From positions 1 to 22,931 of the forward strand of contig JAUCGI010000075.1 of the NCBI GenBank assembly GCA_030378035.1: 22,931 nucleotides of DNA, written 5' to 3'. Of the stretch, positions 7,913-7,958 are shown piece after piece. The position numbers and the translations under genes were made by a program. A model generated the notes under the pieces. That model saw nothing but the letters and a program-made list of their open reading frames with translations, did not search any database and was not told the DNA's origin. The number at the start of each line of letters is the position of its first letter. Position 1 is the stretch's first letter. The DNA comes from Desulfobacterales bacterium HSG2. Its GTDB lineage: Bacteria; Desulfobacterota; Desulfobacteria; Desulfobacterales; 4be13.

Positions 7913-7958
7913 AGACGCCGACTTTTAACTTTTAACTTTTAACTTTTAACTTTTAACT
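7913..7958. repeat. (TTTTAAC)6 heptanucleotide microsatellite 22 nt upstream of the MVP-like gene start
   Basis: GACTTTTAACTTTTAACTTTTAACTTTTAACTTTTAACTG read directly. Followed by AAAGGAG (SD) and ATG 7981. Confidence 0.9.

Follow-up and report, generated by a model that had tools for sequence, protein, structure and literature searches.

Does a perfect tandem array of a heptanucleotide, located directly in front of a gene for a major vault protein (MVP)-like protein, act as a switch of this particular gene, or does it reflect a more general habit of the genome that carries it? The question is raised by a stretch of 22,931 nucleotides from Desulfobacterales bacterium HSG2 (contig JAUCGI010000075.1, hereafter referred to as the window), for which a preliminary description had proposed a candidate phase-variation switch. 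According to TRF, the array occupies positions 7921-7958 of the + strand (ACTTTTAACTTTTAACTTTTAACTTTTAACTTTTAACT) and consists of 5.4 copies of the unit ACTTTTA with a period of 7, 100% matches and 0 indels; an exact regular-expression search finds 5 complete TTTTAAC units (7923-7957) and a partial unit at either end. The array had initially been given as (TTTTAAC)6 at 7913-7958, of which the perfect heptamer array is retained, but neither the unit number, which is 5, nor the start, which is 7921; the earlier start includes 8 bases outside the repeat (AGACGCCG). The existence of the array is thus confirmed, and it lies far beyond chance expectation. When perfect STRs with a period of 4-12 and at least 3 copies are counted, the window contains 8 as compared to 0.36 expected from 100 first-order Markov simulations, and the longest run in these simulations measures 15 nt versus 38 nt for the array.

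The gene downstream of the array (7981-10476, + strand, 831 aa) is indeed MVP-like, as had been supposed, with Pfam matches to MVP_shoulder (2.5e-28) and Vault_3 (9.6e-09) and also to Band_7, corresponding to a major vault protein / SPFH shoulder. Homologues of the protein number in thousands; the closest ones, which are 80-81% identical, come from Desulfococcaceae bacterium HSG8, a JGI contig and a Logan contig, and the next-closest ones from Desulfonema and other filamentous or mat-dwelling taxa. Array and start codon (7981) are separated by the 22 nt that had been noted before (7959-7980, + strand), and this segment harbors a Shine-Dalgarno (SD) sequence, AAGGAG (7969-7974), which is located 6 nt before the ATG and 10 nt after the array end at 7958. 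On the other side, the neighboring gene (5706-6743) encodes a caspase-plus-SH3 protein on the - strand. Because this gene is divergent, the spacer of 1.2 kb must contain a separate promoter for the MVP gene, located within positions 6744-7920 (the remainder of the divergent intergenic region as delimited by ORF map, Pfam and repeats) unless it lies inside the array. The assignment of the array to the leader or promoter zone of the MVP-like gene is therefore borne out.

Apart from the array, the window encodes a cluster of "eukaryote-like" proteins, comprising MACPF plus hemopexin (1331-2860), the caspase (Peptidase_C14) plus SH3 protein (5706-6743, - strand) and the major vault protein (7981-10476). 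The spacer between the caspase and the MVP gene contains three copies of a dispersed repeat of 66-90 nt (70-85% identity; 7187-7282, 7343-7423 and 7572-7676), the first of which ends in a promoter-like TTGACA-N17-TATGTG (7276-7304), and a pair of 78-nt repeats (81%; 6783-6860 and 6915-6992), as well as an inverted array of hexamers.

The position of the array is occupied by other heptamers in some MVP orthologues and is free of repeats in others. Immediately 5' of the SD, the orthologue on L195 (80% identity to the window MVP) has (AACCCAG)x2.7 (126-146 of that locus), the one on L001 (80%), which is that of Desulfococcaceae bacterium HSG8, has two degenerate units, CTGTAAC CAGTAAC (CNGTAAC x2; 2963-2977), and the one on L003 (70%) has a perfect (ATCGAAA)x3.3, the end of which is located 4 nt before the SD (2951-2973). 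No repeat is found just 5' of the SD on L074 (81%), L196 (74%) and L197 (74%). AAGGAG and its spacing are conserved on L001 and L074, and similar sites are present on L195, L196, L197 and L003; since orthologues without an array keep the same SD, the array is dispensable. Alignment of the regions upstream of the closest orthologues yielded no conserved promoter, conservation being confined to the SD and to the sequence that begins with the ATG. That one and the same spot holds one heptamer in some orthologues, another in others and none in the rest indicates, as far as can be judged from these comparisons, a turnover by slippage over evolutionary time, and the spot in front of the SD of MVP genes appears to be a recurrent slippage hot spot with a unit that is not conserved. 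This agrees with the earlier view that the array is of a kind that changes by slippage, as does a pair of metagenome arrays with related flanks from one sample (L093 and L102), which contain 6 versus 8 TTTTAAC units. With regard to same-species sequences for a comparison of copy numbers, an exact-protein look-up returned 0 entries, the best protein homologue being 81% identical, and a 23-mer common to the window and L001 gave 0 matches in the metagenome scan.

The array is a genome-wide habit rather than a locus-specific device. The window contains 4 heptamer arrays in 22.9 kb, and its STR density (period 5-9) amounts to 36 bp/kb, whereas none of the 74 MVP-homologue loci compared exceeds 13.5 bp/kb; many of these loci are short-read assemblies, which under-represent repeats. 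One of the siblings, (ATCAAGC)x16.7 (11927-12041, + strand), begins at the stop of a 90-aa ORF and ends 20 nt ahead of the ATG at 12062, with AAGGAAAA in between and the order of array, RBS and ATG found at the MVP gene, so that the statement that other genes of the window have similarly placed repeats is corroborated; the gene starting at 12062 belongs to the TrpD family (Pfam Glycos_transf_3). A degenerate heptamer array, (TTTGTGT)x9.3 (11504-11571, + strand), overlaps the stop of an alcohol-dehydrogenase-like gene and lies upstream of a small ORF at 11655. The fourth heptamer array, which is built from a 21-nt super-unit, is located in-frame in a gene for a UvrD/AddA-like helicase and is translated as (GQLSVVG)n. 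Two repeat styles can be distinguished in the window, i.e. hexamer and nonamer arrays, which form inverted hairpin pairs, and heptamer arrays, which are unidirectional and adjoin genes.

Further repeats of the window are described here in their own right. The helicase ORF (15009-18872, - strand) contains two in-frame repeats (17599-17715 and 16094-16166), of which the 21-nt unit is translated as (GQLSVVG)n and a 15-nt unit as (NGSRA)n. The hexamer arrays (ACTTAA/ACTTGC)n at 3422-3607 and (AAGTGC/AAGTTT)n at 3655-3774 are mutually reverse-complementary and are predicted to fold together into an approximately 350-nt hairpin (-186.6 kcal/mol, z=-17). This hairpin, the end of which lies 76 nt before a rubredoxin/NAD(P)H-oxidoreductase gene (ATG 3850), is far stranger than the heptamer array; its hexamer units also occur at the broken contig end of L195 (1-30), near the MVP gene with 80% identity. 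Smaller inverted pairs of short-unit arrays are present at 7434-7526, with (CTTGAT)n versus (ATCAAG-like)n, at 19648-19711, with (ATCTTG)n versus (GATCAA)n, and at 19186-19271, with (CACGAAACA)n versus (TCTTTCGTT)n. Tandem units of 77/78 nt at 13179-13910 and 14678-15006 contain palindromes of the GGGGGATTGCCAAATCCCCC type (REP/BIME-like), and a palindromic motif related to this type is located upstream of the MVP gene of Desulfococcaceae HSG8 (L001, 2840-2905). A 139-nt unit is repeated 3.4 times at 22234-22707 (90% matches) and a 36-nt unit 3.2 times, perfectly, at 14473-14589. Between the dehydrogenase-like gene and the 90-aa ORF, which has no Pfam match, lies a perfect palindrome with 16-nt arms, AGACCTCCGAGGTTTT/AAAACCTCGGAGGTCT (11596-11628), followed by a 15-nt direct repeat in two copies (11620-11650).

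What the array does at the MVP gene depends on whether it is transcribed. Since the gap between array and ATG comprises only 22 nt including the SD, transcription must start either upstream of the array or within it. We consider it more likely that the array is part of the 5'-UTR, which is favored by three lines of evidence. First, MVP orthologues of Sericytochromatia have a clear TTGACA-N17-TATAAA about 95 nt upstream, so that in this gene family the leader would measure about 60 nt. Second, the ATCAAGC array is flanked by co-oriented genes. Third, the array on L003 is located in a gap of about 60 nt behind an upstream reading frame of the same orientation, the stop codon of which was read by eye and is unconfirmed, and is therefore probably transcribed through. 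A point against the leader reading is that no promoter was identified upstream of the array: a strict scan of the + strand found neither a sigma-70 consensus nor an intrinsic terminator near the array, and the exact sigma-54 consensus TGGYAY-N5-TTGCW is absent from the whole + strand of the window. At gathering thresholds, Rfam gave no match anywhere in the window, so that no known riboswitch or leader explains the region.

As RNA, the array has a folding energy of 0 kcal/mol, whichever strand is considered. A leader segment from 7880 to 8020 folds worse than its shuffles (z=+1.9), and in a 381-nt leader (z=-0.02) about the first four units of the array are unpaired. The same holds for the start-proximal heptamer arrays of the window in general, which are near structure-free, with 0 kcal/mol for TTTTAAC, -4.4 kcal/mol for ATCAAGC (115 nt) and -1.9 kcal/mol for TTTGTGT. 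With 86% A+U, the array would thus provide single-stranded A/U-rich RNA 5' of the SD, as known from A/U-rich enhancers and standby sites, if it is transcribed.

In E. coli, A/U-rich tracts 5' of the SD stimulate initiation in cooperation with the SD (PMC2176067), and unstructured 5' tails act as ribosome standby sites, the effect of which saturates at 16-18 nt (PMC5934652). A comparable case is the epsilon enhancer of T7 gene 10, UUAACUUUAA (PMC9590205), which the array junction UUAACUUUUAA resembles except for one extra U in the array; this is a resemblance only. The likeness to such elements lies in a single-stranded A/U-rich tract directly 5' of a strong SD. The known enhancers, however, are single short elements from E. 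coli and phage systems only, whereas a tandem array is present here, and a role of protein S1 would be assigned by analogy; the standby/S1 reading leans on E. coli data, the host being a member of the Desulfobacterota.

Taken together, we regard it as somewhat probable that this is a slippage-born heptamer array of the STRR/TAACTGA/LSSR kind, which forms an unstructured A/U-rich leader and is neutral or mildly helpful for translation. The array would have arisen by slippage in a Desulfococcaceae (Desulfonema-like) genome and, in the more likely case, would be transcribed as (UUUUAAC)5, a wholly unstructured tract abutting the ribosome-binding site. It would be expected to keep this site open and serve as a ribosome standby or protein-S1 landing region, with a neutral to mildly stimulatory effect on MVP translation. 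Because the 38-nt tract is well beyond the saturation length of 16-18 nt, copy number would have little leverage on expression, and the gain or loss of one 7-nt unit would be expected to cause a slight change, i.e. to act as a weak dial and not as an on/off switch.

The heptamer itself is widespread. A metagenome scan for (TTTTAAC)4 returned at least 120 loci (L075-L194), and among the matches listed the host contigs of arrays with at least 4 units span about 27-66% G+C. Among these matches, arrays read in the TTTTAAC orientation are followed within 20 nt by the start of an ORF of at least 80 aa in 23 of 102 cases, as compared to 9 of 103 for the opposite orientation (Fisher p=0.007); this bias is modest, it is based on a crude ORF-start rule, and a gene or replication strand bias could also produce it. 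All of the 10 downstream ORFs tested have a Pfam match, with 7 being redox or metabolic; the families comprise redoxin, 2-hydroxyacid dehydrogenase, aldehyde dehydrogenase, aminotransferase, PLP-dependent enzyme, HypC, SPFH protein and integrase. Most of the arrays among the matches listed abut the ATG without an SD in between, so that the window array with its canonical SD represents a minority class. The contigs that bear TTTTAAC arrays contain 335 period-7 arrays versus 39 with period 6 and 29 with period 8, and more than one heptamer unit type is found in 80 loci, again among the matches listed. For other start-near heptamer units, strand composition, which was compared in order to detect selection on the RNA, was not significantly biased (G<C in 18 versus 10, p=0.12, n=31). 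Only about a quarter of the non-coding heptamer arrays among the matches listed are located within 40 nt of a start, and many heptamer arrays may therefore be functionless.

The recurrence of an identical heptamer on at least 120 contigs of such different G+C content, with an orientation bias toward start codons, would be in line with the idea that the array serves as a platform to which a dedicated heptamer-recognizing protein or RNA binds, as part of a global transcriptional or post-transcriptional network. This idea parallels proposals for TAACTGA in Beggiatoaceae and for heptamers in Nostoc; in the register TAACTTT, the unit of the array has 5 of 7 bases in common with TAACTGA, and the deletion of heptamer repeats affected a recO reporter in Nostoc and in E. 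coli (bioRxiv 10.1101/2022.06.06.494920). However, the start-proximal arrays of the window use the unrelated units TTTTAAC, ATCAAGC and TTTGTGT, and orthologues use yet others, which argues against one sequence-specific reader. Furthermore, according to Pfam, no candidate binding protein is encoded near the array in the window, and no heptamer-binding factor has been identified in any organism according to the literature (PMC4679880; bioRxiv 10.1101/2022.06.06.494920). We consider the binding platform unlikely, though not far-fetched.

A broader version, which we likewise hold to be doubtful, is that (TTTTAAC)n and other heptamer arrays represent a cross-phylum, orientation-dependent cis-element, either a translational enhancer in the form of a tandem "epsilon-like" pad or the target of a heptad reader. 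If this were true, heritable changes in copy number would allow large, polyploid, filamentous bacteria to adjust many of their housekeeping genes in a graded manner, and the phenomenon would widen from cyanobacteria, Beggiatoaceae and Bacteroidetes to sulfate-reducing Desulfococcaceae.

In the preliminary description, the array was put forward as a candidate contingency locus, at which slipped-strand mispairing would alter the number of 7-bp units. At high frequency, such changes would reversibly switch or grade MVP expression within a population, as for hmw1A/hmw2A of H. influenzae. One of the proposed routes, a change in the spacing of promoter elements, fails on geometry. The spacer between -35 and -10 elements measures about 17 bp, and a 38-bp array cannot be accommodated in it; the array lies outside the ORF and not between a -35 and a -10 element. 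The other proposed route, a change in UTR structure, here considered as a switch of the hmw type, finds no basis in the folds, which give 0 kcal/mol without a complementary arm. At hmw, the heptamer switch known in most detail, the tracts comprise 11-63 units, and a hairpin is formed by 10 repeats with a G-rich arm and is cut by RNase III (PMC12721329); the array has 5 complete units, its putative partner GTTAAAA is absent from the entire window, and an hmw-like hairpin is thereby ruled out.

The position in the leader does resemble that of the (ATCTTTC)n tract of hmw1A/hmw2A, a slippage-variable 7-nt unit between promoter and start codon (PMC12721329, PMC8262952), and, as cited in PMC4679880, that of the (AGAT)n tract of uspA2 in M. 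catarrhalis. In addition, the 100% perfection of the array suggests recent slippage or homogenization, and unit numbers differ both between the related metagenome arrays (6 versus 8) and between MVP orthologues. On the other hand, three of three metagenome pairs with identical flanks have equal unit numbers within each pair, and the same architecture is found before the housekeeping gene of the TrpD family and before metabolic genes of the metagenome contigs, such arrays being a genome-wide property. Contingency loci typically concern surface structures or restriction-modification. The MVP is a cytoplasmic particle protein of a free-living organism and the sibling array precedes a TrpD-family gene, whereas hmw controls a surface adhesin of a host-adapted pathogen. 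From this we conclude that an on/off phase-variation switch at the array is disfavored, and that a contingency locus in the classic sense is quite improbable here.

The array might also be promoter DNA instead of leader RNA. In this case, the A/T-rich array itself would act as the promoter, by means of a putative sigma-70-like element TTTAAC-N17-TAACTT (7924-7952, + strand) with a start near 7959, or as an UP-like element; both hexamers would be complete only with about 4.3 units or more, and the loss of a unit would weaken transcription. A relaxed scan with a position weight matrix (PWM) upstream of the MVP gene gave weak matches only, of which the in-array one scores 7.33, between the 99th (4.87) and the 99.9th (8.58) percentile of the window. 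No better promoter is found on the + strand within 300 nt, and, with the upstream gene being divergent, the MVP gene requires one of its own. The match, however, agrees with the consensus at only 6 of 12 positions and was not reported by the strict scan, no such hexamers exist in the sibling ATCAAGC array, the equivalent array on L003 is probably transcribed through, and the promoter of the Sericytochromatia orthologues lies about 95 nt upstream, leaving a leader of about 60 nt. We therefore regard a promoter made by the array as highly improbable.

A hidden coding role of the array, or a leader peptide, is ruled out, since direct reading of the sequence reveals TAA in all six frames, i.e. in each frame of both strands, so that TTTTAAC arrays are always non-coding.

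As a single locus, the array matters little, as it adds one heptamer repeat to the many that the genome contains. Heptamer arrays next to start codons, however, have long been noted in big filamentous bacteria and are unexplained there (PMC4679880; bioRxiv 10.1101/2022.06.06.494920), and three pointers emerge from the present analysis: a Desulfonema-like sulfate reducer shares the heptamer-array habit; across many environmental genomes (among the matches listed), the exact TTTTAAC array is found again and is biased in its orientation; and start-proximal heptamer arrays consistently lack RNA structure, in contrast to the inverted hexamer arrays of the same window. Our full-text literature search returned no paper on such arrays in Desulfonema relatives and no mention of a TTTTAAC array in bacteria. 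A cultivable relative of Desulfonema could suit work on the tuning of translation by heptamer arrays.

Among known systems, repeats of the heptamer type litter the intergenic DNA of certain large or filamentous bacteria, as exemplified by STRR in heterocystous cyanobacteria, TAACTGA in marine Beggiatoaceae and GGGNATC in Xanthomonas and Nostoc, and heptamers predominate among the long simple sequence repeats with units of 5-11 nt (Mrazek et al. 2007, as summarized in PMC4679880). The majority of the GGGAATC-type heptamer repeats of Xanthomonas axonopodis pv. citri are transcribed (Rehm et al., PMC4692102), and the heptamer repeats whose deletion changed the output of the recO reporter were described by Pradhan et al. 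(bioRxiv 10.1101/2022.06.06.494920). What the window has in common with STRR, the Nostoc repeats and the long SSRs is the presence of many heptamer units that are scattered intergenically, often within 100 nt of a start codon or promoter, the occurrence of some repeats in-frame within ORFs, as in the helicase gene, and the heptamer as the dominant period. It differs in phylum and units; moreover, GGGNATC forms quadruplexes, which TTTTAAC cannot, and the regulatory evidence from Nostoc is preliminary.

The closest likeness in layout is to the TAACTGA direct repeats, which have been described from marine Beggiatoaceae, some cyanobacteria and some Bacteroidetes (MacGregor 2015, PMC4679880). Both consist of 7-nt tandem direct units, with 2-6 copies in BOGUAY as compared to 5.4 here (PMC4679880), and both are intergenic, stand in "forward" orientation just 5' of start codons, precede genes without a functional theme and are structure-free as RNA, as predicted for TAACTGA arrays in Table 3 of PMC4679880. 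The hosts belong to the large filamentous bacteria found in sulfidic mats. In BOGUAY, however, the array mostly adjoins the start codon directly and takes the place of the RBS (132 "no RBS" versus 15 "with RBS" sets), whereas AAGGAG intervenes here, and essentially one unit is used genome-wide, whereas the window uses several. The unit sequence differs as well, with TAACTTT sharing 5 of 7 bases with the strict TAACTGA unit, of which no repeats are found in the window, and the host here is a deltaproteobacterial sulfate reducer.

In a class whose function is unproven throughout, the array differs from the start-proximal heptamer direct repeats by its unit, the intervening canonical SD and its host lineage, and it fits them in all other respects considered: tandem direct 7-nt intergenic units in few to tens of copies, many arrays with heptamers favored (as seen in the 22.9-kb window, which is not a whole genome, and on the contigs that share the unit, among the matches listed), and proximity to a start codon, here 22 nt from the ATG, together with the orientation bias observed among the metagenome matches listed.
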